A stretch of DNA of 22,972 bases from Candidatus Eiseniibacteriota bacterium (GCA_965224245.1 CBDCYW010000009.1:1-22972), one strand, 5' to 3'. Numbered from the stretch's first letter, positions 3,707 to 22,800 are shown. Numbers and translations are program-made. Notes: generated from the letters alone by a model not told the origin.

Positions 3707-3777
3707 CCGTCACCGGGTGGACTCCCACCCACTGGAAGTCGCCGCCTCTCCACGGCGCACAGTTCATTGACCACACG
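3707..3777 (+). repeat. Degenerate repeat shared with 18323-18378, ending in an rve-element-like terminus
   Basis: 3732-3764 matches 18346-18378 at 28/33. 3761-3777 matches the reverse complement of 7550-7566 at 15/17. Confidence 0.7.
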
Positions 3778-5077
3778 CCCGGGCCGAGCGCGATGTTTTC
3801 GTCCGTGCGCTATCCGGATGCGTCCCGATTGTTGTGGAAAAGCGTAGCGCCCTCCTGATTGCGTGATAGTAGCGCGTTACGGCGTCTCGGCACCTCCGAG
3901 CCGAGATCGTGGCCACGTGCTGGTGTCCGTTGATCTTGCGCATCTTGATCTGACCGAACGCAACGAGACCGTAGAGCAACGTCAGCGCCGCCTCTTCGGT
4001 CGAGAACGACGCTTGGGTCTTGGTCCGCCGGCGGAACTCTCGGTTCAGATTCTCGATCGAGTTGGTCGATCGCAGCGACTTCCACATCGGCTTGGGGAAC
4101 TCGTAGAACGTGAGGAGCTGATGCCCCACCTCCTCGAGACTTCTCGCGACGGCCGGACAGAGCGTCCGCCACTTACCCAGGAACGCGTCGTACGCCCCTC
4201 GTGCGTCCATGGCCGAGGTGGCCATGACGATCGCGTGGTAGTCGCGGGCGAGCTCAGGCCGGGCATGGACCGGACAGCACGCCTCGAGATTCGCACGCTT
4301 GTGAACCGTGCACCGCTGAACGCCAGCTTCGGGCCAGAGCGCAACCGCGCGAAGCAGTCCTTTGTGACCGTCGCTGATGATCAGCTCAGGACTCGGGAGT
4401 CCGCGAGCCCCAAGGTCCTCGATCACCGCGCCCCAGTTCGTCGCCGCCTCGCTGGCGGCGAGTCGAAGCGCCACCAGGCGCTTGTTTCCGGCCTCATCGA
4501 CGCCCATCACCACCAGGACCGGCACGCTCACCACCCGGCGAGCCAGCCGCACCTTCAGGTGGATCGCATCGAGCATGACGATCGGATAGGTCTCCTCGCT
4601 CAGGTCCCGCTCGCTCCAGCTCTGGAACAGCGCCTTGAGTCGAGATACGACCCGAGAAACGGCGCTCTTCGAGAGGTTCGCTTCGCCAAGAAGCGGCAGA
4701 AGCGCCTTGCGGATACGTCGACTGTTCGCGCCGGCGAGATACACCCCGAGGATGGCGTCGTCGACCCGGCGGGTACGACGGGCGTAGCGGGGCAGGATCT
4801 CGCTCGTGAACTCGGTGGTGTTCCCCGACTCGTCGCGGACGCGAGCCCTGGGAACCGAGATCTCCATCGGACCGGACTCCGTCGTGATCGTTCGCGACGT
4901 TCGCCCGTTCCGATAGCCTCGACGCTCATCGGTCCGCTGGTATCGAGAAGACCCGAGAAGCTCCGACAGCTCCTCCTCGATCACGACCTCGACGACCTGT
5001 GCGATCCGCTGCTGGAGAAGCTCACGAACGACGTGACGGACGGGAAGTTGGGACGGAGCGGTGGTAGACTGAGCCAT
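3764..5077 (-). CDS. IS256-family transposase with read-through C-terminal extension
   Basis: Protein identical to copy 1 up to ...RRCRDA, then extended to 437 aa because GCCGCGTAA reads GCCGTAA. Confidence 0.92.
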   Translation of the reverse strand: MAQSTTAPSQLPVRHVVRELLQQRIAQVVEVVIEEELSELLGSSRYQRTDERRGYRNGRTSRTITTESGPMEISVPRARVRDESGNTTEFTSEILPRYARRTRRVDDAILGVYLAGANSRRIRKALLPLLGEANLSKSAVSRVVSRLKALFQSWSERDLSEETYPIVMLDAIHLKVRLARRVVSVPVLVVMGVDEAGNKRLVALRLAASEAATNWGAVIEDLGARGLPSPELIISDGHKGLLRAVALWPEAGVQRCTVHKRANLEACCPVHARPELARDYHAIVMATSAMDARGAYDAFLGKWRTLCPAVARSLEEVGHQLLTFYEFPKPMWKSLRSTNSIENLNREFRRRTKTQASFSTEEAALTLLYGLVAFGQIKMRKINGHQHVATISARRCRDAVTRYYHAIRRALRFSTTIGTHPDSARTKTSRSARACGQ

Positions 5078-5166
5078 GGCGTTTCCTCCTCGCCCGGTGG
5101 GCGGTCTGGTTTGGCAACCAGGAGGTTACGCCATTTTCGTTTTTCCACAGGACTCGGGACGGATCC
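3816..5166 (-). mobile_element. IS256-family insertion sequence, copy 2 (1351 bp), with 8-bp target-site duplication
   Basis: Reverse complement of copy 1 apart from a 2-bp loss at the transposase stop. TSD CGCTATCC at 3808-3815 and 5167-5174. Confidence 0.97.
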
Positions 5167-8391: not shown

Positions 8392-8635
8392 CTACTGCCT
8401 TCGCGGCTCAGCTCCGCCGTAGACTGCTCGAAGTCGTGACCAACTCGAACGCTGAATGGGTGAATGTCCGCCATCTGTCCAATCCGTAACGACGTCACAG
8501 GGCAGGTATCCAAGACCGCCACCTGCGGTGTCGACGCTCCCTAGTGCCTCCGTACGAAACGACTCGTCGATCTCGCCCGTCACGAAGATCGCCGCTCCGA
8601 TCCTCGCATCCGCGGTGACCGAAAGGAGACCCGTC
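8392..8635 (-). pseudogene. 3' remnant of a gene ending in a SPIQRSSWSRLRAVY motif, cut by IS66
   Basis: Open frame from the IS66 left end to the stop at 8392. The C-terminal motif parallels that of 2500-3112. Confidence 0.6.
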
Positions 8636-8707
8636 GTATCCGTTCGGTGAACCCATGTTGAGCCCATCGGCCGGTCCTGAGAACGTGCGCACCCGAGGAG
8701 GTGCCGC

Positions 8708-9064
8708 ATGCTCTCGAAGTCGATCACGACCGCGCTCGCCCCGATCTCCGACAACCGCTACTGGCGGGAGTCGGACGCGGAACGCGCACTTGCCATCTGG
8801 AGCCAGAGTGGGCTCACACTGAACGCCTTTGCGCGACAGTGTGGCCTCAGTGTGTCGCGACTGCGCCGCTGGAAGTCCAAGCTCGAGGCCGACGGCAGCC
8901 CCCGCTTCCACCCGGTCGAGATCGTGGAGACGGCTGACGCCGACGTGGCCGACTCCGACGCCGGTATCGAGCTCATCGTCGGGCAGCGCCACCGGATCGT
9001 CGTCCGCCGCGGCTTCGATCGCACGCTGCTACACGAGCTCATCGAGGCGCTCGATCCGTGCTGA
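8708..9064 (+). CDS. tnpA: IS66 accessory protein TnpA (HTH)
   Basis: WSQSGLTLNAFARQCGLSVSRLRRWKSKL...FHPVEIV...IELIVG; RBS GAGGAGG; overlaps tnpB. Confidence 0.82.
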   Translation: MLSKSITTALAPISDNRYWRESDAERALAIWSQSGLTLNAFARQCGLSVSRLRRWKSKLEADGSPRFHPVEIVETADADVADSDAGIELIVGQRHRIVVRRGFDRTLLHELIEALDPC

Positions 9065-9438
9065 CCCTGCCGCACACCGTGCGCATCTACATCGCCGCTG
9101 AGCCCGTCGATCTCCGCAAGGGCTTCGACGGGCTCTCGGCGGCCACGCGCGAGATCATCTCCGCCGATCCCCTCTCGGGACACCTGTTCGTGTTCATCAA
9201 CCGGCGCGCGAACCGGATGAAGATCCTCGTCTGGCAGCCCTCGGGCTATCTCCTCGTCTACAAGCGCCTCGAACGCGGCCGCTTCACGCTCCCGCGCCAC
9301 CCCGAGGTCGGGTCCTCGCACGTCGAGATCGAGTCGTCGGAGCTGACGTTGCTCCTGGATGGGATCGATCTTCGCGGCTCCCAGCGCCGGAGTCGCTGGT
9401 CGCCGAAGAAGGGACTTGCCTGGCGCGCGACGATGTGA
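9058..9438 (+). CDS. tnpB: IS66 accessory protein TnpB (Orf2)
   Basis: Hallmark YIAAEPVDLRKGFDGL...GHLFVFINRR..RMKIL.W...GY.L.YKRLERGRF. Confidence 0.95.
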   Translation: MLTLPHTVRIYIAAEPVDLRKGFDGLSAATREIISADPLSGHLFVFINRRANRMKILVWQPSGYLLVYKRLERGRFTLPRHPEVGSSHVEIESSELTLLLDGIDLRGSQRRSRWSPKKGLAWRATM

Positions 9439-9450
9439 TTCAAAGAGTGC

Positions 9451-9588
9451 ATGACCTTCGCGCAACTCACTCGTGAACTCGAGCGCTTCCGCTCCGAGCT
9501 CCAGACGCTGGCCGCCAACGGCCGTACCGATGACGCGATCGAGAAGGCGTTCGAGCGCATGCGCCTGCTCCTGCACCGGAACCTCCAT
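9451..9588 (+). pseudogene. tnpC: IS66 transposase TnpC, N-terminal fragment
   Basis: Positioned right after tnpB. Coiled-coil-like 46 codons, interrupted at the IS3 terminus. Confidence 0.6.
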
Positions 9589-9597
9589 TGTTCGTCG

Positions 9598-10656
9598 TCA
9601 GAGCCTTTGGGACACTTCGCGGCTCATCGCTATGGACACTTCCCTCACGTCGGCTGGCCGGATGACGTCCTTTCTCGTGACCGGCAAGCCTAGATTGTAG
9701 CGCCTTCGGCGCCGCAGGGTCTCTCGCTTCACGAGCGCCCTGGCCGAACGGATCTCACGCCCGCGGCCCTCGTACACGTCGGCCGGCGTGAGGTTGTCGA
9801 GCGCCTCGTGGACGCGCTCGTGGTTGTAGTGCTCGACGAACCGACCGATCTCCTCGGACAACTCCGCGGGCTGGTAGTAGTTGCGGAGCGTCACCACGTT
9901 CTTCATCGTGCGGTGGTACCGCTCGATCTTGCCCTGCGTCATCGGGTGGTAGGGTCGACCCCGCGTGTGCGGGATCTCTCGCTCCTGGAGGTACTCCCGG
10001 AGCTGCCCCGAGACGTAGCAGGGACCGTTGTCGGTGAGGAGCCGCGGCCGCTGTCGCACGTGGGGCCGGGTGACCCCGGTGCGGGCGATGGCCTGCTCGA
10101 GCACCCGCTCCACGTCATCGGTCGCCATTTGCCGACAGAGCAGCCAGGCGATGATGAAGCGGCTGAAGTCGTCGAGCACCGTGGCCAGGTAGTACCAGCC
10201 CCAGGCCGTCACCCGGAGGTACGTGAAGTCCGTCTGCCAGAGCTCGTGCACACGTCGGGTCGGGTTCGGGAACTGCTCGTGTGCCGTCAGCACCATGAAC
10301 GACGGGCTCGTCACCAGGTCATGGGCCTTCAGGATGCGATACACGCTCGATTCCGAGATGTACGTCCCATCGACGTCCGTGAGCCGCCAGGCGAGCTCCC
10401 GGGGTGACAGATCGGGGTGTTCGAGCGCCACCTCGACCACGTGCTGCCGCTCTTCGTCGGGGATGCGGTTCCAGAACCGACGAGCCGCCGGCTTGACGCC
10501 CTCCAGCGCCTCGAACCCACCCTCCTGGTACAGCCGGTACCAGCGGTAGAACGTGCTCGGGGCCACCTCCAGCTCGCGCAGCGTCTGCCGGACGCCGAGC
10601 TCGGAGCCCTCGACCAGGCGGATGATCTCGAGCTTCTCCGAGGGCGTGTGCCTCAT
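9598..10656 (-). CDS. IS3-family transposase OrfB (DDE)
   Basis: WQTDFTY, LDDFSR, LLTDNGPCY, HPMTQGKIERYHRTMK, YNHERVHEAL..LTP. Confidence 0.95.
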   Translation of the reverse strand: MRHTPSEKLEIIRLVEGSELGVRQTLRELEVAPSTFYRWYRLYQEGGFEALEGVKPAARRFWNRIPDEERQHVVEVALEHPDLSPRELAWRLTDVDGTYISESSVYRILKAHDLVTSPSFMVLTAHEQFPNPTRRVHELWQTDFTYLRVTAWGWYYLATVLDDFSRFIIAWLLCRQMATDDVERVLEQAIARTGVTRPHVRQRPRLLTDNGPCYVSGQLREYLQEREIPHTRGRPYHPMTQGKIERYHRTMKNVVTLRNYYQPAELSEEIGRFVEHYNHERVHEALDNLTPADVYEGRGREIRSARALVKRETLRRRRRYNLGLPVTRKDVIRPADVREVSIAMSREVSQRL

Positions 10657-11015
10657 CCCACGTCCGACTCGTCGGATAGAGTCGCCCTTTTTTTCAGCAT
10701 CGCATTGCGCACCGACAGATCCGCAACCAGATCCCGGAGCTGACGGATCTGCTCTCGAAGCTCCATCACCTCCGTGCTCGACGCCTCTCGCTTCGTGTTC
10801 CCCTGCAGACGCCGCTTCCCGGCCTCCAGGAACTCCTTGCTCCAGTTGTAGTAGAGGTTCGGGCTGATCCCTTCACGCCGGCACAGCTCCGCGATCGTCT
10901 CCTCGCCCCGGAGACCTTCCAGAACGATCCGGATCTTCTCTTCCGATGAGAACTTACGGCGGGTCTTGCGGCGGATCTCACGAACCACCGATTCCGGGCC
11001 ACTCTTCTTCGACAT
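10653..11015 (-). CDS. IS3-family transposase OrfA (HTH)
   Basis: RRKFSSEEKIRIVLEGLRGEETIAELCRREGI...YYNW; RBS AAGGAG. Confidence 0.95.
   Translation of the reverse strand: MSKKSGPESVVREIRRKTRRKFSSEEKIRIVLEGLRGEETIAELCRREGISPNLYYNWSKEFLEAGKRRLQGNTKREASSTEVMELREQIRQLRDLVADLSVRNAMLKKRATLSDESDVG
10665..10694 (-). other. -1 programmed ribosomal frameshift signal
   Basis: AAAAAAAG (10694-10687) followed by stem CGACTC/GAGTCG. The -1 frame is open into OrfB. Confidence 0.8.
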
Positions 11016-11111
11016 CAGGTCCGCTCCTTGGATGACGATTCAAAGAATACATCCCAGAAGTGACCATAGCGATTATGCTTGATCGTGTCCCATCAGCTCT
11101 GACGCCGAACA

Positions 11112-12309
11112 GGATGCGATGAAAGACTCCCTCGTCGCGGGGATCGATGCGAACTTCGGCATCTACGAGGGTCTCTCGTTCCGATCGGAACGCTTCGAAC
11201 GGTGGCTTGCCGAACATCGGATCCCGTGGCCTCGCTCGGACACGGGGCGGTTGGTATTGGACGATGATACCTTTCGCATCGCCTCGACGACCCATCCGCG
11301 ACTCACCCCCCTCCGCGAGCTTCGTCGGTTCATGTCCCAGCTTCGTGCCCCGGCAATCGCGATCGGACGGGATGGTCGGAACCGATGTCTGCTCTCGGCG
11401 TTTCGGAGCCAGACCGGCCGCAACCAGCCCAGCAATGCGAGGTTCCTGTTTGGGGCGCCGTCGTGGATGCGGGGCTTGATCCAGCCCCGGCCAGGAATGG
11501 CGCTGGCGTATCTCGACTGGTCCCAGCAGGAGTTCGGGATCGCGGCGGCGCTCTCCGAGGACGCGGCCATGATCGAGGCGTATCGATCCGGCGACCCCTA
11601 CCTGGCATTCGCGAAGCAGGCCGGCGCCGTGCCAGACGATGCCACCAAGGCGTCGCACGGATCGGTACGCGACCAGTTCAAGCAGTGCGTACTCGGGGTG
11701 CAGTACGGCATGGGTGAGGAGACCTTGGCGCTGCGCATTGGGCGCCCGCGGCCCTACGCACGTGAACTCTTGGACCTCCACCGTCGAGTCTACAGCCGCT
11801 ACTGGGCATGGTCTCGAGCCGTCATCGACACCGCCATGCTGCATGGCCGGCTCCACACCGTCTTCGGGTGGCACCTGCACGTCACGCCATCGACGCGGAG
11901 CCGTTCGCTGGCGAACTTCCCGATGCAGGCTAACGGAGCCGAGATGCTGCGGCTGACCTGCATCCGCGCCACCGAGGCCGGGGTCCACGTCTGCGCCCCC
12001 GTTCACGATGCCATCCTGGTCGAGGCGCCTGCGGTTTCGATCGAGACGGTGGTTCAGCACGCCCAGCGAGCCATGGCCAGGGCAAGCGAGGATGTTCTCG
12101 GCACCCTCACCCTGCGCACCGATGCCCGAGTCGTACACCACCCCGGTCGCCTCCTCGAACCGCGAGGCGAACCCATGTGGGGCCGGGTTCTCGCGGCGCT
12201 CGAAAGCGCTGAACGAGCCCGCCGCCCCGCCGATCCGGTGGTACATCAGCGCAACAGAGATGTTGCGCGCGTGGACCACCCGTCCTCTCTCCTCTCTTCT
12301 TATACCTAG
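11112..12309 (+). pseudogene. Family A DNA polymerase of mobile-element type, 5'-truncated by IS3 (polymerase domain remains; in-frame ATG at 11119)
   Basis: TGRNQPS, motif A YLDWSQQEF, motif B RDQFKQCVLGVQYGMG, NFPMQANGAEM, motif C VHDAILVE. The frame abuts the IS3 end. Confidence 0.9.
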
Positions 12310-12319
12310 GTAGGTAATC

Positions 12320-12682
12320 ATGCCGGCACATGACCCGCAGGAACGACGACTCTCGCTGGAGGCCACACGGGAGATCGAGACTGAATACAACCAGCGTCGA
12401 GCCGGGTGGTTCATTCGTGGACCGCTTCCCTTGCACTGGATCGCCATGGCGTCCGCGCTTCCCGGAAAGGCTTTACACGTAGCGCTACTTCTACAGTTCC
12501 GTCGGGGTTGCGAGGGCAAGGAGCCCGTTCGACTGACCCGGCACCACCGCGAGCTGTTCGGACTGAGTCGGCACGCAACTTATCGCGCCCTCCAGGCATT
12601 GGAGTCCGCCGGCCTCGTGGAGGTCACTCGCCGGCGCGGACGATGTCCACTGGTCCGCATCCTAAGCGTGCCCGCCCCGTGA
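12320..12682 (+). CDS. Winged-HTH DNA-binding protein
   Basis: FGLSRHATYRALQALESAGLVEVTRRRGR; starts 10 bp after the polymerase stop. Confidence 0.78.
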   Translation: MPAHDPQERRLSLEATREIETEYNQRRAGWFIRGPLPLHWIAMASALPGKALHVALLLQFRRGCEGKEPVRLTRHHRELFGLSRHATYRALQALESAGLVEVTRRRGRCPLVRILSVPAP

Positions 12683-12861
12683 CGGCCCCAGCAGCCCCCC
12701 CGACGCGTGGTGATGGGGTCCGGGCGGCGCTGACGGGCCTCCTCGCTCGCGCCTACATCCGCCTGATCACCGGCGAGCCCCCGGACGATCGACTTGATGT
12801 GCCGCCCGACGCGAGCGTCCATGTCCCCACGGTTGACACCCCGAGAGAGGAGGACGCGTGA
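12679..12861 (+). CDS. Small hypothetical protein (LLARAYIRL)
   Basis: GTGA overlaps with both the upstream stop and the downstream start; 60 aa. Confidence 0.55.
   Translation: MTAPAAPPTRGDGVRAALTGLLARAYIRLITGEPPDDRLDVPPDASVHVPTVDTPREEDA
12793..12824 (+). promoter_or_regulatory. Element motif copy 1: CTTGA-N15-GAGCG-TC-CATGT
   Basis: 33 nt upstream of the DUF2924 start; same spacing as the two other copies. Confidence 0.65.
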
Positions 12862-13343
12862 CCCTGGACCTGGATCGAGAGCTGGAGACGCTCGGGGGCA
12901 TGACGATCGCCGAGCTCCAGCGGCGCTACCGCGACGTGTGGGGCGAGGAGACGCGCTCGCACTCGAAGCCGCACCTGGTGAAGCGGATCGCCTGGAGGCT
13001 CCAGGCCGACGACGAAGGCTTCTCAGGCCACCCGGAGGCGGTGATGGCAAGGGCCCGGGAGCTGGCGGACTTCGCATTCCTACGCACGCGCCCGCCGTCT
13101 GACGCCGGGGCCGGTACGTCGCCTCGCGTCCGCAAGCGCCTGCGATCACGTGATCTCAACCTCCCGCCGGCCGGCACCGTGCTGCGTCGCGAGTACAGAG
13201 GCCGCGTCCTGGAGTGCCGCGTCCTCGAGCACGGCTTCGAGTTCGACGGCGAGGTGTATCGCTCGCTCAGCGGGGCGGCGAGGGCGGCGACGGGCGTGAA
13301 CTGGAACGGCAAGGTGTTCTGGCTCAAGGGAGCGAGGGACTGA
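12858..13343 (+). CDS. DUF2924 domain protein
   Basis: ELQRRYRDVWGE...LVKRIAWRLQ...PAGTVLRREYRG...GFEFDGEVYRSLSGAARAATGVNWNGKVF; RBS GAGGAGG; directly before the recombinase. Confidence 0.9.
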   Translation: MTLDLDRELETLGGMTIAELQRRYRDVWGEETRSHSKPHLVKRIAWRLQADDEGFSGHPEAVMARARELADFAFLRTRPPSDAGAGTSPRVRKRLRSRDLNLPPAGTVLRREYRGRVLECRVLEHGFEFDGEVYRSLSGAARAATGVNWNGKVFWLKGARD

Positions 13344-13345
13344 CG

Positions 13346-14896
13346 ATGGCCGTCCTGTTGACGAGAACCCGCAACGGCAAGCGCCATGAGCCGGCCATCA
13401 TCCGCTGCGCCGTCTACGCCCGCGTCTCCGTCGACGACGGCCCCGATCAGGTCCTCAGCTCCACCGAGGCCCAGCAGGAGGCCGTCCTCGCCTACATCGC
13501 CAGCCAACGCCATGCCGGGTGGATCGCCTTGCCCGACGTCTACGAGGACCGTGGCTTCAGCGGCGGCGACACGCGTCGGCCGGCGTTCCAGCGCCTGCTC
13601 CGGGACGTCGAGAGCGGCGAGGTCGACCGCATCGTGGTGCACCGCATCGACAGGCTGAGCCGGAGCCTCGCCGACTTCGTGAGGATCATGGAGACGCTCG
13701 ACCGTCATGGCGTCGGACTCGTCAGCGTGACGCAGCAGCTCGACACAACGACCTCGATGGGTAAGCTGACGATGAACTTGCTGTTCTCGTTCGCCGAGTT
13801 CGAGCGCGAGATGATCTGCGAGCGGACGCGCGACAAGATGCGGGCGGCGCGACGTCGAGGCCAGTGGACCGGTGGTGTTCCCGTGCTCGGATACGATGTC
13901 GCGGACGGCGGTGGCCGGCTCGTGGTCAACGAAGGCGAAGCTGAGAGAGTCCGGGCGATCATCTCGACCTACCTGGAGACGCGCTCGCTCTCGGCCACGA
14001 TCGCCGAGATCCGCCGCCGGGGCTGGACCACGAAACGCTGGGTGTCAGCCTCGGGCAAGGCCCACGGCGGCGGCGAGTTCGGCAAGTCGACGCTCCAGAA
14101 GCTCCTGACGAACCCGCTCTACGTCGGCCGCATCCGGGCCGGTGACGAGATCGTCGACGCCGAGCATGAGGCCATCGTGGACGTCGAGACGTTCGAGGCC
14201 GCCCAGGCGTGCCTCCAGGGGAACCGCGTCACGAACGGCTCGGCCCCGAAGACGAAGCGCACGGCGATGCTGGCCGGCCTCCTCCGATGCAGCGCGTGCG
14301 ACTCAGCGATGACGCGGTCTTGCACCACGAAGGGCCGCAGGCGCTACGCGTACTACGTGTGTGTCTCGCGCCAGAAGGAAGGCACCCACGTCTGCCCCAC
14401 CGCTCCCGTCGCCGCCGGCGAGATCGAAGCGTTCGTGGTCGACCAGATCCGGGGCATCGGCAGCGACCCGAAGCTCATCGCCGCCGTCGTGGCGTCGGCG
14501 AAAGCCCAGGCGAAGGCTCGCGCAAAGGAGCTGGCCAACGACGTCCGCATGCTCGACGCCGAGATCAAGCAGATGCGTGGAGAACTCAGCCGCGCTCGTG
14601 GCGACGCCGACGACGACCGGATCGCCGAGGTCGCTCGACGCCTCAAGACCACCGAGCGCCGACGCCGTGTGGCCCACGAGACGCTCGTAGCGGCGCGTGG
14701 CCGCGCGATCAACCGCACGGGCGTCTCGGAAGCCCTGTCGGAGTTCGACGCGCTCTGGGCGCGTTTGACGGCGCGCGAGAAGCACGAGGCGCTGGCGCTG
14801 CTCGTCGAGCGTGTCGAGTACGATGGCGCGTCCGGCGAGGTGGCGATCACGTTCCGCGAGGAGGCGGCCTCGCTTCTACCCGGAGGTCACCCGTGA
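13346..14896 (+). CDS. Large serine recombinase (resolvase, recombinase and zinc-ribbon domains)
   Basis: CAVYARVS, DRLSRS, FAEFEREMI.ER, LLTNPLYVG, LAGLLRCSAC...YYVC...C, and a coiled coil. Confidence 0.96.
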   Translation: MAVLLTRTRNGKRHEPAIIRCAVYARVSVDDGPDQVLSSTEAQQEAVLAYIASQRHAGWIALPDVYEDRGFSGGDTRRPAFQRLLRDVESGEVDRIVVHRIDRLSRSLADFVRIMETLDRHGVGLVSVTQQLDTTTSMGKLTMNLLFSFAEFEREMICERTRDKMRAARRRGQWTGGVPVLGYDVADGGGRLVVNEGEAERVRAIISTYLETRSLSATIAEIRRRGWTTKRWVSASGKAHGGGEFGKSTLQKLLTNPLYVGRIRAGDEIVDAEHEAIVDVETFEAAQACLQGNRVTNGSAPKTKRTAMLAGLLRCSACDSAMTRSCTTKGRRRYAYYVCVSRQKEGTHVCPTAPVAAGEIEAFVVDQIRGIGSDPKLIAAVVASAKAQAKARAKELANDVRMLDAEIKQMRGELSRARGDADDDRIAEVARRLKTTERRRRVAHETLVAARGRAINRTGVSEALSEFDALWARLTAREKHEALALLVERVEYDGASGEVAITFREEAASLLPGGHP

Positions 14897-15222
14897 GCGT
14901 CACCATTCGCGCCAAGTTCAGCCCCAAGTCTGCCCCTGCCGAGGTGCCCGACGTCCCCACCGTGCCCCGATCGGCCCGGCTCATGGCGCTGGCGCTCGCG
15001 CTCGACGAGATGGTGCGCGATGGGCGGGTGGAGTCGTACGCAGAGGTGGCTCGGGTTGCCGGGGTGTCTAGGGCGAGGGTGTCGCAGATCACGGCGCTGC
15101 TGGGGCTGGCGCCGGACATCCAGGCGGCGTTGCTGGATGGGACCCTGGTGGTTGGGGAGACCCGGCTTCGGGCGGCGCTGCGGTCATCCTCATGGTCCGA
15201 CCAGCGTCGCGCCCTGCCCTGA
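14893..15222 (+). CDS. Recombinase-associated HTH protein
   Basis: GTGA overlap with the recombinase stop; SYAEVARVAGVSRARVSQITALLGLAPDIQ. Confidence 0.75.
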   Translation: MSVTIRAKFSPKSAPAEVPDVPTVPRSARLMALALALDEMVRDGRVESYAEVARVAGVSRARVSQITALLGLAPDIQAALLDGTLVVGETRLRAALRSSSWSDQRRALP

Positions 15223-15266
15223 ACTCTGCCGCTTTCGTGCCCCGGAATGTTCCTACCCCGGCCCTC

Positions 15267-15275
15267 TGCTATGCT
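15267..15275 (+). promoter_or_regulatory. Possible extended -10 element (TGcTATGCT)
   Basis: About 46 nt upstream of the hemolysin III ATG. A similar TGgTACGAT lies at 16022-16030, before the YecA-like gene. Confidence 0.3.
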
Positions 15276-15321
15276 GCCGCCCTCCACCAGGTCGATGTAA
15301 GGAGCGTTGTAGATCCGAACC

Positions 15322-15969
15322 ATGTCTGCCAGAGATCCCGACGAGAAGTTCACGGCCGCCGAGGAGCTGGCCCATAGCCTGACTCACGGCGTCGGCTTGC
15401 TGATCGGGATCGCGGCGCTCGTTCTCATGATCGTGTTTGCGGCTCGGAGGGGCTCCGCGATCGACGTGGTCTCTTGCACCGTCTACGGGGCCACGCTGGT
15501 CGTCCTGTATGCGTCGTCAACGGTCTACCACGCGCTGCCTTCTGGACGTGGCAAGCGGGTCTTCGGCATTCTCGACCACTCCGCGATTTATCTGCTGATC
15601 GCGGGTACCTACACACCCTTCGCTCTCATTACGCTCGATGGGCGCTGGGGATGGAGCCTCTTCGCCGTGGTCTGGGGCCTCGCGATCGGGGGGATTGTGC
15701 TGGAAGCCGTCTCGCGTGGTCGTGCGCGTCGCATCCAACTGCTGCTCTATGTCTTGATGGGCTGGGGGATCGTCGGCGCTGCCCGGCCATTGCTGACAGA
15801 ACTCGCACCTGCGGGACTCGCCTTGCTCCTGGCCGGCGGTCTCGCGTACACGCTCGGCATCGTCTTCTTCGTTTCGCGACACCCGTTCCATCATGCGATC
15901 TGGCACATGTTTGTTCTCGGCGGCAGCATTTGTCACTTCTTCGCCGTGTTCCTCTACGTCATTCCCTAG
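15322..15969 (+). CDS. trhA: Hemolysin III / PAQR family membrane protein (TrhA/YqfA-like)
   Basis: [47 protein letters not shown]; multiple transmembrane segments. Confidence 0.95.
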
Positions 15970-16075
15970 GCGATCCTCATACGATACTCTCGTGGTCGGA
16001 TCGGAGACCTCCCACGACGCGTGGTACGATGCGCCGAGGCGAGGGCCTACTACCCCCTTCAATCCGGTGGTGCAC

Positions 16076-16777
16076 GTGCACACGGTCACTCCGCTCACCA
16101 AGACCGAGGAGCGACGCCTGGAGGCGTTCCTCTCGTCCCCGCTTCGCCCCGAGGGGACGATGACCTACCCCGCCTTTCGGGGATACTTGTTCGGGTTCTC
16201 CGGAGGACCGGCGATGGTGCCGCCCTCGGTATGGATGAGCGACGTCTTTGGCGGCGAGGATGCCGGCTACGCCGATCTCGAAGAGGCGAACGCGGTCCTC
16301 GGTGCGGTGATGAGCGCGTACAACCACACGAACGCGGCGATCTCGGGGGACATCGAGCTGACACCGGAGGCCGTGGGACTCGATCCAGACTCGGAGGAGG
16401 ATCGGTTCGAGTGGTCGGCGGGGTTCTGCCTCGGCTACGACCACGTTCGTGATGATTGGGATCGTGCCATGAAAAAGCTGGATGAGGAAGATCAAGAGGC
16501 ACTGTCGGCGGTGTTTGTGACCCTGATGATGTGGTCAGAGCCCGAGACGTATCTCGAAGACGCACAGATTGCCGATGGCTCGCGAGAGGAGTTCCTCGAA
16601 CAGTGCCGGCAAGCGATCCCGAATGCCCTGACGCACTACGCGTCGATCGGACTCGGTTTGTTCCGTGCAGGACTGGCGGCGGGCAAGGTGCCGATACGTC
16701 GGGCCCCTCAGGTCGGACGCAACGACCCGTGCCCGTGCGGTAGCGGCCGGAAGTTCAAGAAGTGCTGCCTGAACTGA
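16076..16777 (+). CDS. UPF0149/YecA-family protein with C-terminal SEC-C motif (start uncertain)
   Basis: GYLFG...[37 protein letters not shown]. Candidate GTG starts at 16067, 16070 and 16076. Confidence 0.88.
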
Positions 16778-16783
16778 TCGAGC

Positions 16784-17380
16784 TCAGCACGGCAGGCTGC
16801 GGATCTGCTCTGCCATCTCCTCGTCGCTCGGGTGAAGGTAGATCATCGTGGTGAGCGGCGACGCGTGCCGAGCGAACCGTTGTGCCAGGAAGAGGTCCCG
16901 GCTTGCTCGGTAGACCATGGTGACACTTGTGTGGCGAAGTACGTGCCAGTTATAGAGACGATCGAAGGACGCCTTTCGCTGCCATTCGTGAAACATCATC
17001 TGCGTCCGCCTCGGTGACAACCGTCGCCCCCACGACGAGATGAACAGCGGCGCGTCGCTCTCCAGCGGCTCCCGCATCATCGCCTTCCACGCCAGGAACC
17101 GCGTCAGCTTCTCGACGACCCGATCGGGCAGAAACACCTCGCCCTTGCGCGAGCCCTTGGTCGTCTCGACGCGCAGCTTGATGCGCGTGCGCACGCGGAC
17201 GCCATCGGGACTGACGTCCCCGACGTCGAGGCCGAGGAGTTCGCCGAGGCGAAGCCCGGTGCCCAGCGCCATCGAGATCATCACGTGATCGCGGGGGCGT
17301 GGACTCTCCGCGCTGACGTCGAGGAGCCGGCGCTGTTCGGCGGTCGTCATGGTCTCGGGGGCTCGATACGGCAATCTCAT
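16784..17380 (-). CDS. Tyrosine recombinase, catalytic domain only (about 198 aa)
   Basis: ALGTGLRLGELLGL, TKG, HVLRHT, FARH, TTMIY. ATG 17380 follows GAGAGGAGG; alternative ATG at 17350. Confidence 0.9.
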   Translation of the reverse strand: MRLPYRAPETMTTAEQRRLLDVSAESPRPRDHVMISMALGTGLRLGELLGLDVGDVSPDGVRVRTRIKLRVETTKGSRKGEVFLPDRVVEKLTRFLAWKAMMREPLESDAPLFISSWGRRLSPRRTQMMFHEWQRKASFDRLYNWHVLRHTSVTMVYRASRDLFLAQRFARHASPLTTMIYLHPSDEEMAEQIRSLPC

Positions 17381-17558
17381 CCTCCTCTCGCGCGGGGCTA
17401 ACAGTCGATCCGGTAGTCTGCCCGCGTTCCCCAACAACGAGCCGCTCCGCATCACGGGCCTCAACGACTCGCTCGCGGGGAACTCCAACTCTGATCCGCC
17501 CCCGGTCCGGCCAATTGTCGGCTCGCCGGGGGCGTTTTCGTTTCGACACCTGCCGCTC

Positions 17559-17590
17559 ACATCACCGCTCGCCGCCCCGCTCCAGTCAAC
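17559..17590 (-). promoter_or_regulatory. Element motif copy 2: GTTGA-N15-GAGCG-GT-GATGT
   Basis: Points toward the tyrosine recombinase leader. Confidence 0.65.
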
Positions 17591-17621
17591 CGAGAAAGCC
17601 TGAGTTAACCCATTGCCATTG

Positions 17622-17653
17622 CTTGACTTAACTCGGAGCCAGAGCGGTCATGT
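17622..17653 (+). promoter_or_regulatory. Element motif copy 3: CTTGA-N15-GAGCG-GT-CATGT
   Basis: 52 nt upstream of ATG 17706; back-to-back with copy 2. Confidence 0.65.
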
Positions 17654-17705
17654 GTCGCACTGGCGCGCAATCCGCAGCGCCTGCGACACAGGCGAGGAGG
17701 TCGAC

Positions 17706-18317
17706 ATGGCGACGACGAAGAAGAAGGCTCCGAGGAAGACAGCGGCGAAGGCGACCAAGGGCGGCACCGGGGCCAAGTCAGGCCGCGCGGCGAGGGCACG
17801 GGCGAAGAAGGCCCCCGGGGCCGCGCCCGCGAAGAAGAAGCGCACACGGGCCGCGACTGGCGGCGACGGCGGCGCCCCTGACCTGGACGCGCTCCGCGCC
17901 ACCGTCGTCGAGGCCGAACGCGCCGTCCGCGACATGGAGGCCGAGGCCGCCAAGCTCCACGCGGAGGCCAACGGCATCGTGGCCGACGCCAAGGCGCGCT
18001 TCCGCGACGTGCTGGCCCCGTACCGCGACGCGTGCAAGAAGGCCCGTGTCCGCTGCGAGTTCACCGGCGGGCGCGCCACCAACGTCTCCGAGCGCGTGAC
18101 GTTCCTCGTCGAGAAGAGCGGCAAGAGCGTGAAGGTCGCGATCAAGGGTCGGCCGGACACCGAGGAGGTACTGAACCCCGACTTGATCAAGGTCTCGATC
18201 AACAAGGCGGCGCTCGATTACACCGATCGGCATCTCGGGCCTCGCGAGGTCGTCGGGAACAAGTCGGGGTCGTTGGCGAATCGACTACGGGCGGTGCTCA
18301 AGAAGAAAGCGCACTGA
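17706..18317 (+). CDS. Hypothetical basic protein with Lys/Ala-rich (histone H1-like) N-terminus and coiled coil
   Basis: RBS GAGGAGG; MATTKKKAPRKTAAKATK...AKKAPGAAPAKKKR; strongly GC-biased third codon positions. Confidence 0.82.
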   Translation: MATTKKKAPRKTAAKATKGGTGAKSGRAARARAKKAPGAAPAKKKRTRAATGGDGGAPDLDALRATVVEAERAVRDMEAEAAKLHAEANGIVADAKARFRDVLAPYRDACKKARVRCEFTGGRATNVSERVTFLVEKSGKSVKVAIKGRPDTEEVLNPDLIKVSINKAALDYTDRHLGPREVVGNKSGSLANRLRAVLKKKAH

Positions 18318-18322
18318 GCGGC

Positions 18323-18390
18323 CCGTCGCCGGGCGGTCTCACCTGCTGGACGTCGACGCCTTTTCACGGCGCGCAGTTTTCGGACACGAC
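18323..18390 (+). repeat. Degenerate repeat shared with 3707-3777; candidate element end
   Basis: 28/33 core identity with 3732-3764, followed by AGTTTTCGGACACGAC, which resembles AGTTTTCGGCATCGAC at about 516-531. Confidence 0.65.
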
Positions 18391-18540
18391 GAACTCGACG
18401 AGTCTCATAACGCTTGATGTGAAGCATGCAGGGGCTCGTAGTGCGGGGAGTCCGCACGCTGCGGGCGACGTGGCGGGAGCTGGAAACGGAGTCAATGGAC
18501 CACCGCCGCCAGGTCTCGACCCTGACCCGCCATGCGGTCA

Positions 18541-19839
18541 TCAACGCGCCAACTGAACGTACTTACCGGTCCGTCGCCCATGGCGATCCGCCTCGAGGGT
18601 CCAAAAGTACACTCCGGCACCGAGATCGAACGTGAACCCGCTCGCCTCGCTAGCGGAAGCACTCTCTTTGTGTGCGACCTCCCGACCAGCTAGGTCGAAC
18701 ACCGTCGCGCGGACTCGCTCACCAGCAGCCAGCCCTTCGACAACCAGGTTCAGGTGATTGCAAGGTGTCGTGGCGTGCACGTTCCAATCTGGTTGGGGGA
18801 CGTCGTTGTTGACCCCGACCTCGGCCGACACATCTAGTCGATACACACCGAAGCCACCACCCAGAGCCGCGTAGAAGACTCCCTCTGAATAGCGGTCGCT
18901 CGCGATGTCGTAGACGGTGTCAGCGTCGGGCGGGAGCCCCATTATGGCCGCGTCCCAGGTCTGGCCGTCGTCACGACTCAGATAGATCGGTGACTCGATC
19001 CCGGGCGTGGACAGGTCGCCCACGACCACATCACCGCCTGTCGCAGCCACGGCAAATGCATAGATGGGTTCCGGCAGGGTGATCGAGTCCCATGACTCAC
19101 CGTCGTCGGTTGTTCGAAACAACCCGCCACCACAACTTGGAGATTGCCCCACGAAGACGCTTCCGCTCGAGTAATCGATCGAGAGCCTCCCGACCGCTCC
19201 CGTGGCGCATTGAACCGAAGTGTCCCACCCCTCACCGTCAGCGGAATAGGTCACACCACCACGGAACAGATCGGAACCCCATGTCGCCCACAGCGAGCCG
19301 GTCATCTCGTCAATCTGTATCGTGAAGTACCTGGCGCCTGTCGTCGCGACGCCCCAGGATTCCCCATCGTCCACACTTCTGAACACCGCGTCATCGGTCG
19401 CCAGGTACAGAACCGCCGGGTCGGTCACGGACACCGCAACACCGCCGGCGAACGAGCCCGTCGCATCGTGCGTGATGTCTTGCCACGTGGATCCGTCGTC
19501 TTCGGAGCGAAAGACGAGTGCCCCCCCCAACTCGGGGAAGCGGAGCGTCACATAGAGACGGCCCGTCGACGGGTCGATTGTGACGGCCGACAATGCTGTG
19601 TCCTCAAATGCCACCGACTGCCAGTTTGGCTCGGACGAGCGAATGTCCAAACTCCACAGTCCTCGGCCGGCGGATCCACTGGCATCCTGGACACACGCAA
19701 AGAGAGTCGATTCCGCCACGGCAAGGGAGAACGGCGTCAGACCCGACAATCCGGCTGACTCCCACACCGGGTCCGAATGGCCCGGTTGGGCGACCACGAG
19801 CCCAACAAGAATGCTTACCACGATACTCTTTGTACGCAT
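18541..19839 (-). CDS. Secreted BNR/Asp-box beta-propeller protein with C-terminal secretion-tail-like domain
   Basis: Signal peptide; RSEDDGSTW, RSVDDGESW, RTTDDGESW, LSRDDGQTW; C-terminal VFDLAGREV...GAGVYF. Confidence 0.9.
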   Translation of the reverse strand: MRTKSIVVSILVGLVVAQPGHSDPVWESAGLSGLTPFSLAVAESTLFACVQDASGSAGRGLWSLDIRSSEPNWQSVAFEDTALSAVTIDPSTGRLYVTLRFPELGGALVFRSEDDGSTWQDITHDATGSFAGGVAVSVTDPAVLYLATDDAVFRSVDDGESWGVATTGARYFTIQIDEMTGSLWATWGSDLFRGGVTYSADGEGWDTSVQCATGAVGRLSIDYSSGSVFVGQSPSCGGGLFRTTDDGESWDSITLPEPIYAFAVAATGGDVVVGDLSTPGIESPIYLSRDDGQTWDAAIMGLPPDADTVYDIASDRYSEGVFYAALGGGFGVYRLDVSAEVGVNNDVPQPDWNVHATTPCNHLNLVVEGLAAGERVRATVFDLAGREVAHKESASASEASGFTFDLGAGVYFWTLEADRHGRRTGKYVQLAR

Positions 19840-19872: not shown

Positions 19873-22800
19873 TCACAAACGCAGGACAGCAAGGGTTCGC
19901 GGCCCACCACTCAGCCCCTCAACTCTGGCAAGGTACCGCCCGGACGGAGCAAACGAACCAGAGGGGGTGCGACCATCCCAGACTATCGTACCTCGTCCTG
20001 CGGACAGAAGGACATCGCTCGATTTCCAAACGCGACGGCCGGCTACATCGAAGATCGCGACTGACACACGCCGCTGATCACGCAGCACAAACTCCAGCGA
20101 AACTCCGCCGCCTTCCCTTATCGAGCACCACGCACGATCGGTACGACTAAGCACAACGGGACCTTCGTGCAAGCGCGGCTGGGTTACCGGTGTCACGTAT
20201 GAGTAGACCCACGCCAACTCTATGGCAGCAACCGAGTCCGGGTGCTGAGGGTACCAACCGAGAAACACCGACTTTGTCGAGTCCTCCCAGACCCTGTAGA
20301 CGGTACCCGAGAGTGTACATCCACTAGTGGTCACACCACTCACACCTGCGGTGTTTGTTGTCCAGTTCAGATCGAGAGAGTCGGTATTGGGCCATGTAGG
20401 GCACCAGCGAGTGGTCCATACCCAGTCTGATGGAGCCGTCGAACCAAGAAACGACTCGAACGAGACCTCTTTCGAGAGAGACCACCACGTCGTTATCCAC
20501 TTCCGACGACTCCGTCTCGTCATCGTTGTAGTCGACGAAGACCGATGCAGTGCACTGCTCGGGCTCTACCGCGAAGGGTCCAGCGAACACCGTATCGACC
20601 TCGCCCGGATTCAGCGGCCCGATCGCCTGTGTGTCACCCCAGAAGCCGACGCACCCCTCGATCTCGATGCGGACGTCGAAGGTGCCCGAGGTGAGGTTGC
20701 CATCGTTGACCACGATGGCACCGATGCGAAGACTGTCGGGGTCATCTGCCCAGGCTGCCGCCGAGTCGGGGAGGCAGACGAAGCCGATCGGGGCGAGGTT
20801 CGGGAGAGCGGGGCCGCATCCTTGGCCGAGGGCACCGATGAGGCCGCAGTCGTAGCCGTCGGGGTGGTTGCCGGGGAGCGCCGGCGATGTCTCAGCGAGG
20901 CTGTAGAAGTCGTCATCGGGATCACAGAACTGTGGCTCTGCGCGGATGTTTCCGTCGAACCCGGTCGGGTCAGTGACGCCGTCGTAGTCGACCTCGTTCG
21001 CGTAGACAAGGTTGCAGCTCAGGCTGGTGAGATCGCTCGGGTCAATGTTGACGTCGATGCCCGTGGGGCAGCCGAAGACGAGATTGTTGTCAATTGACGC
21101 GGTGACTACGCCGGTCGCCGAGACATGTAGCCCGCCGCCGACGACCGTGTTGTTGGACGCGTTGATTACGCCCGAGTACTCATCGATCGTCAGACTGATA
21201 CTTAATCCGGCGTACGCGAGGTTGTTTGAGACGCTCCCCCCCGAATTCCAGCCGTCAGCGGATGCGCCTCCTCGAAGCACGTTTCCCGACAAACCGACGC
21301 TGCCAAACGCATTTGAATAGGCGCCAGCTTGTCCACCAATCTCGCAGCCATAAATACTCGCAGAGGAATAATCCCCGCTGCTAACTCCGACATCGCCCGC
21401 GACGACACAAGCGCCCACGCTTGCGCTGCCGTCGTACGTGCGGAGGTTAACTGAGCCCGTGACAGTGCAGCCGGAAACTGCCACGCTACCTTCCAATAGG
21501 GTCGCCTGGCATTCACCAAGAGTGCTGCCCGAGATCTCGACGAAACTCGAATAGTCCCCACCTCCGGAGACACGGATATCGTCGACATGCGAGCTTTTGA
21601 CACGCACCTCGGAGTTCACGAAGTCGACATCCACTCGTTCAACGACGCAGTCACGAACCGTCAGATCCCACAGATTGTAGCCCACGATCTCTTGGGTGAT
21701 GACGTCTACGACGGAGCCACCGTTGGCTCGCGGAGCTCCCGTATCTACATGGTGAACGTGATCGATCCAGGTAGTCTCCGCGCCGCTCCCGATCAGGTGG
21801 ACGACCTTCGTATCGACGACGACACCCGCGAAGGTGCCTGGGGCGACTCGCACCGTATCTTCAACCTCTTCTTCGATCGATGCGTAGTCGACCGCTAGCT
21901 GGATCGTCGGGAACTCTGCCGGCACCCAGTGGGTCCCATCCTGGATATCGCCCCAGCGTGCTACGAAGGCCGACGGCGCGACCCCGGCGGTACTGAAACG
22001 TCCGCCGAGGTATAGATCCTCTCCAGCGATGGTCAGAGACAGCACTTCATCGTCCGCGCCAGTTCCCAACGTGCGCCACTCCGAGCCATCCCAAGCTGCC
22101 GTGCGGTTGGATGGAGCCCCATCGACGCTCACGAAGGCTCCGCCCGCGACCAGGTACCCGTTGTAGCTCGCCAGCGCGAACAACTCGTCGTCAGTGCCAC
22201 CGCCGAGCGACGACCAGGCGGCCCCATCCCACAGCGCGACACGTGACGCCCCGACACCGCCGGCCGTCTCGAAGCCGCCGCCAACCGCCAGCGACCCGTT
22301 CCAGACCGCCAGTGCTCGTACGCGCGCCGACATGCCTCCCGCCATCGACTGCCATGCGGCTCCGTCCCATCGCGCGACGTGATTGACGAGCACGCCACCC
22401 GCGTTGTCGAAGAGCCCGCCCGCGATGAGGTCGCCGTCGTAGACCGCAAGCGCTTCCACCCGCGAGTCCATCCCGACACCGATCTCGTTCCAGGCAATGC
22501 CGTCCCACCGCGCGATGTAGCTCGCTGGAGCTCCGCCAGCATTCAGGAAGTGACCGCCGACGATGAGGTCGCCCTCGAACTCGACGATGGCCTTCACGGT
22601 CGCGTCCACGCCGAGACCGAGCGCGGACCATGTCGCTCCATCCCATACGGCGACATTGCTTGCAGGCACGCCGCCGGCCGACGTGAACGCGCCACCGATC
22701 ACGAGCTGACCGTTCCAAGTTCCGAGTGCGGCGACGGCACCATCGGGACCGGAGCCGAAGGCGAGCCAGTCGCCACCCGTCCACTGCGCGAGATAGTTCA

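Follow-up and report, generated by a model that had tools for sequence, protein, structure and literature searches.

Why would two recombinase genes of different types and a gene for an H1-like protein, all on one small contig, carry the same short pattern upstream at a fixed spacing? The contig is a stretch of 22,972 nucleotides (nt) from Candidatus Eiseniibacteriota bacterium (GCA_965224245.1 CBDCYW010000009.1:1-22972; hereafter, the window). An earlier note on its sequence had proposed that the pattern, TTGA-N15-GAGCG-NN-SATGT, is an element-specific promoter ahead of a DUF2924-serine recombinase operon, a tyrosine recombinase gene and the H1-like gene. Judged from sequence, we find a real, conserved, element-borne and promoter-like signal, whose mechanism is plausible, if putative. 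On balance, we think it probable that phage-like integrative elements carry a portable control signal of promoter type, of which the three sites are copies. The sites are conserved, face their genes, share one geometry, are restricted to element DNA and recur in distant elements; that they function as promoters is what we infer from these properties.

All three sites were found by an exact search of the window (Table 1), although the coordinates given earlier, otherwise correct, included one surplus base (C or G) at the 5' end. None of 100 dinucleotide-preserving shuffles of the window contained an exact match. The pattern had been defined after the fact, so that this test is post hoc and independent replication matters more. 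The window (contig C10) belongs to a 6.94-Mb assembly (G000) made up of one 6.45-Mb contig (69% GC) and 26 small contigs (57-69% GC). In this assembly, we counted 13 exact matches versus zero for a reversed control pattern, and 24 matches to a relaxed form (gaps of N14-16 and N2-3) versus 0, 0 and 1 for three control patterns. With one mismatch allowed, the small contigs gave 27 matches versus 7 for the control, and the 6.45-Mb chromosome contig gave 40 versus 40. Taken together, these counts indicate that the motif is real and tied to particular DNA rather than spread genome-wide.

Within about ten paralogous copies of one mobile element, 22 of the 24 relaxed matches lay ahead of exactly the three gene classes named in the earlier note: 10 ahead of DUF2924, and six on each side (tyrosine recombinase and H1, respectively) of a divergent intergenic region. 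One of the other two lay elsewhere in a chromosomal element copy, and the second, also chromosomal, is probably due to chance. All 22 matches at the three gene classes faced the downstream gene. The expected upstream and orientation bias is thus present above background, and the orientation and the conservation ahead of these genes hold in the window, in the paralogues and in other genomes. The gaps left by the relaxed pattern were filled by one-mismatch copies in a diverged element at 0.89 Mb and in C11, C23, C3 and C27.

Copy 1 was represented by ten exact copies, plus those of C11 and C27 at one mismatch. The paralogue of copy 2 on C3 has identical boxes, and other element copies carry TTGATT-N17-AACCAT on the tyrosine-recombinase side. 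Copies 2 and 3 stand back to back, with 33 bp between their TTGA boxes. A second GAGCGG follows copy 2 after another 6 nt (GAGCGG-TGATGT-GAGCGG in the window); on the tyrosine-recombinase side of element copies, the GAGCG box is repeated 6-10 nt downstream. The spacer of exactly 15 nt emphasized in the earlier note describes the three window copies but not the paralogues, in which it is 14, 15 or 16 nt: most H1-side copies have N16, and a common variant on the tyrosine-recombinase side combines N14 with a 3-nt gap. The distance from TTGA to CAT stays constant within ±1 across paralogues, and the spacer to the CAT hexamer is 18 nt in the H1-side copies of C1, C11, C18, C22 and C23. From the C of CAT[G/C] to the start codon, we measured 20-62 nt for DUF2924 genes, H1-like genes and the tyrosine-recombinase copies of the diverged chromosomal element (C1b) and of a second genome (G059, described below), and 175 nt or more for the other tyrosine-recombinase leaders.

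We scanned 205 other genomes of the phylum. There, the exact-type pattern was at background, with 29 matches in 25 genomes versus 28 for the control. Strong matches to the H1-like protein were restricted within the phylum to G000 and G059, a 2.6-Mb genome from another family, and in G059 TTG[AC]-N15-GAGCG-TT-CATG occurred 7 times versus 0 for the control. Four of these sites stand ahead of H1-like genes, one of which is broken; a full-length XerC-type tyrosine recombinase follows two more, and the seventh is a chance match within a catalase gene. In 80 metagenome contigs with H1-like genes, there were 32 matches versus 2 for the control, 29 of them (in 27 loci) located 61-62 nt ahead of the H1-like start codon. 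These metagenome sites keep CAGAGCG[T/C]T[C/G]ATG, with AGAGCG and ATG invariant and the whole box CAGAGCGTTCATGGA nearly so. They come with two differing variants on the -35 side, and their leader hairpins vary in sequence while occupying the same place. In 16 metagenome loci, the genes upstream of the H1-like gene were unrelated cargo, with no conserved regulator adjoining the motif. The window DUF2924 protein had no relatives in the metagenome contigs.

The signal also recurs in AcaML1, a phage of a proteobacterium. Its genome contains TTGGCTTyt-N-CAGCGCGTTCATAC four times (0 for the control), at record positions of about 3015, 20434, 21112 and 22244: once within the Gp5 gene ahead of DUF2924 and three times ahead of other genes, each of these about 35-40 nt before a Shine-Dalgarno site and ATG. 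The four copies lie in four different coding contexts. The AcaML1 gene order matches that of the window: Gp5, DUF2924 (Gp4), recombinase (Gp3) and the helix-turn-helix (HTH) protein Gp2, annotated as 'recombinase small subunit', which is similar to the product of window positions 14893-15219 (E 5e-6). Within 20400-22300 of the record (JX507079.1), Gp30 is annotated to begin upstream of a motif copy that is followed by a Shine-Dalgarno site and ATG, and the fourth copy, again with a Shine-Dalgarno site and ATG (MMRKTANK...), is found inside the annotated small-terminase gene Gp33 on the opposite strand. The starts of genes in this region, and one predicted gene, may have to be revised.

Viral contigs gave at least 542 DUF2924 matches. 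Among DUF2924 genes on such contigs, CTTGA stood 50-130 nt upstream in 38 of 74 unique regions, compared with a mean of 3.2 and a maximum of 9 in shuffled sequences. With a 17-nt spacer, the following hexamer ends in T in 35 out of these 38 regions and starts with TA in none of the 38; examples are CTCAGT, CCTGAT, CCTCAT, CTTCAT and GTCCAT. One of three H1-like viral loci carried TTGA-N15-CTGCC-CT-CATGT. From these comparisons, the signal belongs to a widespread control-region family of the DUF2924/serine-recombinase module, and has spread to further genes in some lineages, namely G000, the G059 lineage and AcaML1.

To which kind of promoter would such a signal belong? Upstream of tRNA genes, host promoters read TTGACA-N17-TAnnnT, with TTGACA, TTGACG or TTGACC as -35 and with -10 boxes of which several end in CAT (such as TACCAT, TATCAT and TAGCAT). 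The window -35 boxes (TTGATG, TTGACT and TTGACT) are close to TTGACA. Taking NNNCAT as the hexamer, the spacer is 17 nt in the window, 18 nt in most H1-side paralogues and 16 nt at the C1b tyrosine-recombinase site. The window hexamers GTCCAT, GGTGAT and GGTCAT differ from TAnnnT, TA opens the hexamer at none of the motif sites, and a scan of window positions 11000-19000 for the sigma-70 consensus returned no promoters. The earlier description as a bipartite, oriented signal specific to the element, in which a -35-like TTGA is followed by a downstream part unlike that of sigma-70, is therefore supported. Two classes of intergenic region between the tyrosine-recombinase and H1 genes have unrelated spacers and flanks and the same TTGA, GAGCG and CAT. 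The diverged copy C1b, whose H1-like protein is 52% identical, keeps TTGA, GAGCG and CAT at three sites (tyrosine recombinase, one further gene and H1). Because the AcaML1 copies read CATAC without ATG, the conserved CAT is not a start codon.

The anatomy that we propose consists of a host-like -35 (c/gTTGAy), a spacer of 17±1 bp ending in GAGCG (CAGAGCG or CAGCGCG in this place in relatives) and a hexamer at the -10 position, G-K-Y-C-A-T. This hexamer keeps the 3' CAT of host -10 boxes, with TA replaced by G[GT] and with GAGC(G) added just upstream. If the geometry is as it seems, RNA would start about 7 nt past CAT and would run through a leader, often with a 5' hairpin, to a strong Shine-Dalgarno site and the gene. 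Three units would be headed in this way: the 3' part of a small open reading frame (ORF) with the DUF2924, serine recombinase and HTH genes; the tyrosine recombinase gene; and the H1-like gene. One signal heading three units implies that both recombinases and the H1-like protein would be switched together. As a best guess, the -35 would serve host RNA polymerase as a docking site, and the TA-less -10 with GAGCG would make firing depend on a further factor, which could be an activator, a repressor or an alternative sigma factor carried by the elements. Expression of the recombinases would thereby stay low until the element is induced.

Several points weigh against this proposal. Holoenzymes of the sigma-70 type need an A at -11, which is missing from the hexamer, such that the housekeeping sigma factor alone would be a poor user of it. 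GAGCG-NN-CATG, moreover, looks similar to the context of a ribosome-binding site. Of 206 genomes, 103 contain the 12-mer GAGCGTTCATGG, where 29 of 30 sampled occurrences have no -35 (the G059 site alone has one) and many read like starts made of a Shine-Dalgarno site plus ATG; we dropped this 12-mer as promoter evidence because of those 29 occurrences. The outer stem of the H1 hairpin in G000 begins within CATGT, which better fits an RNA start at or before CATG than one 7 nt on. H1-like genes in nine loci of metagenome-assembled genomes from other phyla (Planctomycetota/Acidobacteria) come without the motif, and G059 has neither a sigma gene near its loci nor any DUF2924 match. Finally, in five proviruses sampled from the viral contigs, the family pattern found a DUF2924-side site in two, each with the related signal as a single copy, while a third match looks like chance and the pattern missed the other two. 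Single-copy signals in these proviruses suggest that a multi-copy 'regulon' is lineage-specific.

Copy 1 lies ahead of the DUF2924-serine recombinase genes, as the earlier note had it, but not between genes: it occupies the last third of a conserved small ORF of 60 codons. In the paralogues, this ORF keeps ...LLARAY[ILV]RL...LDVPxxxS[VG]HV..., while third positions change synonymously and indels measure 9 and 18 nt. Three copies provide it with a Shine-Dalgarno site and ATG of its own, and in the Acidithiobacillus phage AcaML1 it has a homologue in Gp5 (pairwise E 6e-4). Where the motif overlaps the ORF, it is spelled with codons that are rare within their codon families in the genes of the module: CTT (4.7% of Leu), GAT (20%), CAT (22%) and GTT (3%). 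These rare codons are invariant in 10 aligned copies while other third positions vary, which argues for a constraint at the DNA level laid over the coding sequence. A second conserved box, GGTTGACAC, stands at 12832-12841 in the window and in the paralogues, between the motif and the DUF2924 Shine-Dalgarno site. Viral relatives have GGTTAACGG in its place, as part of an inverted repeat (GAAACCGT...ACGGTTTC), and the box persists in lineages that read across it in different frames.

The leaders downstream of copies 2 and 3 differ in length. The tyrosine recombinase had been taken to start at 17560; it most likely starts at the ATG at 17383, which follows the Shine-Dalgarno sequence GAGGAGG and opens the N-terminus MRLPYRAPETM, conserved as M[RS][LV]PYRAPETM in other element copies. 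The resulting 199-aa protein retains the entire catalytic domain, and copy 2 thus lies about 175 nt upstream of the gene. Equivalents of this leader in C1, C18, C22 and C23 are longer (300 nt or more in most other copies), and a GC-rich inverted repeat, CGCCCCC...GGGGGCG, is kept in tyrosine-recombinase leaders. On the other side, every H1 leader has a hairpin, and those of the G059 lineage differ in sequence; in the window, it lies downstream of the motif and has no U-tract. H1-like leaders are 61-62 nt long in the metagenome loci L105-L162 and the G059 loci L049-L053. In 24 of 33 unique leaders of the G059 lineage, an ORF of exactly 18 codons runs from the motif ATG to a TGA within the Shine-Dalgarno region, 5 nt before the H1 ATG; it exists in two very different peptide versions, paired with two hairpin versions.

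The nearest competitor to our proposal is the idea of a dedicated sigma factor, raised in the earlier note. In this reading, the elements would encode a divergent sigma factor of the extracytoplasmic function (ECF) type, which would read TTGA as -35 and GAGCG/GCGT as -10 and act in trans on all copies, including that of the window, whose own sigma gene would have been lost. We consider this unlikely. There is indeed no sigma gene in the window, and four other element copies, C6, C9, C1 (at 6.11 Mb) and C11, carry a divergently oriented ECF-like sigma gene, frameshifted in C11, at 1.5-2.5 kb upstream of the small ORF. The C6 protein scores above the TIGR02937 cut-off (44.3 versus 42.9 bits). 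In C18 and C22, a frame of about 580 codons with a sigma-region-4-like C-terminus stands directly upstream of the small ORF (C18:11323-13065 and C22:9698-11452, both on the minus strand; 45-49 bits to the second half of TIGR02937). Host-type promoters are seen by eye at the sigma operons of C6 and C9 (TTGCTG-N17-TACCGT in C6), which would fit a cascade with an early sigma factor and late recombination. ECF promoters combine an AAC core at -35 (GGAAC type) with a CGT core at -10, 16-17 nt after the -35. In most sites, CGT follows the conserved GAG about 17 nt past TTGAC: GAG-CGT[CGT] is present in type 1, most H1 sites, G059 and AcaML1, with CGGT in window copies 2 and 3 and CGAA or GGAA in others. 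However, the -35 reads TTGAY or TTGCY in all sites and is not of the AAC type. Only 4 of 12 element copies (the 10 with exact type-1 sites plus C11 and C27) have a sigma gene, and the three intact sigma factors read as strongly diverged from one another (by reading of the sequences and by their differing best Pfam/NCBIfam hits), whereas the motif is constant. In G059, six good sites have no sigma gene nearby, and the C6 sigma factor finds no relative there. Linkage to sigma genes thus stands for some copies, and reading by a sigma factor stays putative. We rejected a regulon of a host alternative sigma factor, as there was only one relaxed match outside element DNA in G000, other phylum genomes were at background and GAGCG..CATG by itself showed no enrichment over that due to full sites. 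We also rejected a heat-shock sigma factor: the Escherichia coli sigma-32 promoter reads CTTGAA...CCCCATnT, from which the spacing is off by about 4 nt, and both groES genes (C1:5756303-5756560 and C1:3321730-3321990) have sigma-54-type TGGCA-N-TGCA boxes. Upstream of these genes stand TGGCAT-N5-GTGCA and TGGCAC-N5-GTGCA, respectively, rather than sigma-70, sigma-32 or CIRCE (controlling inverted repeat of chaperone expression)-type signals.

The remaining alternatives do without a promoter. The motif could be a site of recombination or a cassette junction, used by the element recombinases or by homologous recombination, with its promoter likeness secondary. Nucleotide homology of the H1 cassette begins at 17642, in the GAGCG box, in 7 of 9 copy comparisons, and homology of the recombination module begins 51-75 nt before copy 1 in 9 of 10 comparisons (53 nt after its start in C11). 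Different copies have different genes ahead of the signal, H1 3'-end fragments recur downstream of H1 genes, and in related viral contigs an inverted repeat, GAAACCGT...ACGGTTTC, surrounds the site by eye. The promoter-early stem-loop (PeSL) cassettes of T4-type phages reportedly offer a precedent for regulatory repeats that drive shuffling (PMC2839356). We nonetheless think this reading quite improbable, given the fixed orientation toward downstream genes, the Shine-Dalgarno sites close by at the DUF2924 and H1-like genes and, in the chromosomal copy, an intact site with element genes on either side. The phage attachment site (attP) of a large serine recombinase is a single site of about 50 bp with an imperfect dyad, which lies beside the integrase gene and is split on integration. 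The motif does not look like such a site: it occurs three to four times per element (three in the window), the window sites have no attP-type dyad symmetry and the chromosomal site is unsplit. Very unlikely, in our view, is a signal acting in translation or on RNA, in which GAG and ATG would form a weak ribosome-binding site and the start of an upstream ORF, or a leaderless 5' AUG, coupled to the gene downstream. The ATG is kept in nearly all G000 and G059-lineage sites, the 18-codon ORFs described above end just before the H1 start, the motif ATG is in frame with DUF2924 in C1b and C27, and the box is similar to common Shine-Dalgarno-plus-ATG contexts. Yet there is no ATG in the four AcaML1 copies (CATAC), in C11 (CATA) or at the C1b H1 site (CATC); upstream ORF length in G000 is erratic (a single codon at copy 2, against about 93 at copy 1 and 149 at copy 3); the 18-codon ORF is truncated in 9 of 33 leaders; copy 1 lies within another translated frame; and the conserved TTGA at a fixed spacing is left unexplained. 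Scarcely credible is the view that the motif has no function of its own, copy 1 being conserved only for the peptide that it encodes in the small ORF (LDVPxxxSVHV), and the likeness of copies 2 and 3 to it being due to chance or recent duplication. The small ORF is a real conserved gene, as its indels, synonymous changes and Gp5 homology attest, and the three window copies can be read in one frame as [LV]D....S.[HD]V. On the other hand, copy 2 has no upstream start codon and its C3 paralogue lies in an open frame of 84 nt; the 18-nt spacer breaks the frame in H1-side copies; the AcaML1 contexts differ; the rare T-ending codons are frozen; and the motif precedes non-homologous genes in three lineages. 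Since non-coding copies exist, pure coding constraint is excluded, and the reading built on it is already largely refuted.

Table 1. Positions of the motif copies and of other features in the window
Feature	Position	Strand	Remarks
Motif copy 1 (type 1)	12794..12824	+	TTGATG-N17-GTCCAT-GT; 34 nt ahead of the DUF2924 GTG, within the small ORF
Motif copy 2 (type 2)	17559..17589	-	TTGACT-N17-GGTGAT-GT; heads the tyrosine-recombinase leader
Motif copy 3 (type 3)	17623..17653	+	TTGACT-N17-GGTCAT-GT; 53 nt ahead of the H1-like ATG
Motif box CAGAGCGTTCATGG			Box of the signal
Tyrosine-recombinase leader, about 175 nt	17384..17558	-	GC-rich inverted repeat CGCCCCCGG...CCGGGGGCG, read from sequence
Strong hairpin opening the H1-like leader	17651..17690	+	Entire 62-nt leader folds at -28.6 kcal/mol
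Two IS256-type transposases	1236-2438, 3764-5077		Pfam
IS3	9598-11015		Pfam
Truncated family-A polymerase	11119-12309		Pfam
HTH protein gene	12320-12682		Pfam
Conserved small ORF, 60 codons	12679..12861	+	GTGA overlap with HTH stop; TGA overlaps DUF2924 GTG
DUF2924 protein gene	12858..13343	+	PF11149, 2e-31
Large serine recombinase gene	13340..14896	+	Resolvase, Recombinase, Zn_ribbon_recom; start near 13340-13346
Small HTH protein (ParB-HTH-like)	14893..15222	+	Homologous to AcaML1 Gp2
HlyIII	15322-15969		Pfam
UPF0149/SEC-C protein	15893-16777		Pfam
Tyrosine recombinase	16784..17383	-	199 aa, catalytic domain only; start revised from 17560
H1-like gene	17706..18317	+	Lys/Ala/Pro-rich tail, long helix, small alpha/beta domain

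The window DNA belongs to a family of phage-like integrative elements with a recombination module in common. By tblastn and blastn, the segments at 12.7-16.0, 16.8-17.4, 17.64-18.3 and 20.5-22.97 kb recur at 65-90% protein identity on C3, C6, C9, C11, C15, C18, C20, C22 and C23 (twice) and at two chromosomal loci, one at 6.096-6.112 Mb of C1 beside tRNA-Asn and the other being the diverged copy C1b at 0.883-0.894 Mb. At 11.1-12.7 kb, the window copy alone has the fragment of a family-A polymerase (PolA) and the HTH gene. The single element of 11.1-18.4 kb that the earlier note had drawn is thus borne out for about 12.7-18.3 kb, to which 20.5-22.97 kb is to be added, but not for its first part. 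Upstream of the shared module, the genes vary by copy and include those for an AAA_24 ATPase, replication protein O, a primase-like and a DnaB-like protein. The chromosomal copy (C1, 6.0966-6.112 Mb and beyond) starts about 500 bp past tRNA-Asn (C1:6096072-6096146), and a search for direct repeats of the end of this tRNA gene found none within 200 kb.

The H1-like protein matched no Pfam or NCBIfam family, and its AlphaFold model (mean predicted local distance difference test score 69.5) had no PDB match at E<=0.001. Past full H1-like genes, fragments of their 3' end (the last 35-85 residues) recur in the same orientation every 1-3 kb, in C3 and C11 of G000 and in C12/C18/C19/C8 of G059, with unrelated cargo genes (DUF4062, histidine phosphatase, TPR) between them. 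These arrays look like the result of serial insertions into the H1-like 3' end, or like an integron-like cassette array beside the tyrosine recombinase. Elsewhere in the window, two IS256-type copies (1147-2502 and 3813-5166) are 99.8% identical and inverted, bracketing about 1.3 kb; the same element occupies three chromosomal sites in G000. A multi-copy repeat of 954 bp (8635-9588) adjoins IS3. No Rfam family reached its gathering score in the window.

Systems with similar traits are known. The PeSL cassettes of T4-type phages (Arbiol et al. 2010, PMC2839356) are likewise reported to be short multi-copy regulatory repeats that head many non-homologous genes, with a linked stem-loop and with variant homology breakpoints at the repeats. 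PeSLs are strong sigma-70-like promoters with terminator stem-loops, whereas our motif lacks TA and has its hairpin downstream in the leader; moreover, the motif heads recombination genes of temperate elements, and recombination at the motif is hypothetical. The lambda promoters PI and PRE depend on CII, and PI, which lies within xis ahead of int, has a poor -35 and TTGC-N6-TTGC for CII. Copy 1 would resemble PI as a promoter of an integrase operon that lies within an upstream small gene and has defective core elements, hence would depend on an activator. By contrast, our motif has a good -35 and a defective -10, and TTGC-N6-TTGC occurs only in one subset of G059-lineage sites. With promoters of ECF or phage alternative sigma factors, the motif shares its two parts at fixed spacing, a non-TATAAT -10, a private gene set and sigma genes in some copies; its -35 is TTGAC-like rather than GGAAC, and sigma linkage is restricted to 4 of 12 copies, with none in G059. 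The arrangement of integron intI and Pc, a tyrosine recombinase divergent from the promoter of the first gene of a variable array, is similar too, the more so as the H1-like gene in C3, C11 and G059 is followed by repeated fragments of its own 3' end and cargo genes. Here, unlike in integrons, both promoters would share one motif.

Large serine recombinases have found wide use as tools and often drive the mobility of phages and islands. To our knowledge, how their genes are switched on has been worked out for only a few model phages, and DUF2924, a frequent partner of these recombinases, is uncharacterised. At the level of titles, abstract openings and one passage of PMC10299305, literature searches on DUF2924 and AcaML1 turned up no description of the motif, and for DUF2924 nothing on regulation. 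A bolder version of our proposal would have a cross-phylum promoter class, made of a canonical -35, CAGnGCG and a TA-less GTYCAT, define a private 'recombination regulon' of serine-recombinase phages and islands, read by a divergent ECF-like sigma factor or by a module protein (Gp2-like HTH or DUF2924), with the repeat doubling as a seam for cassette exchange; we regard this version as doubtful. A signal common to the recombinase operon and co-regulated genes offers a handle on the regulator and the induction logic of the element family, and it is carried by a sequenced phage, AcaML1, whose record names the host strain Acidithiobacillus caldus ATCC 51756. The signal would also improve the calling of gene starts and operons in such elements. 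Mobile elements and phages of distant bacteria place this signal, most likely an unusual promoter, before their DNA-recombination genes.

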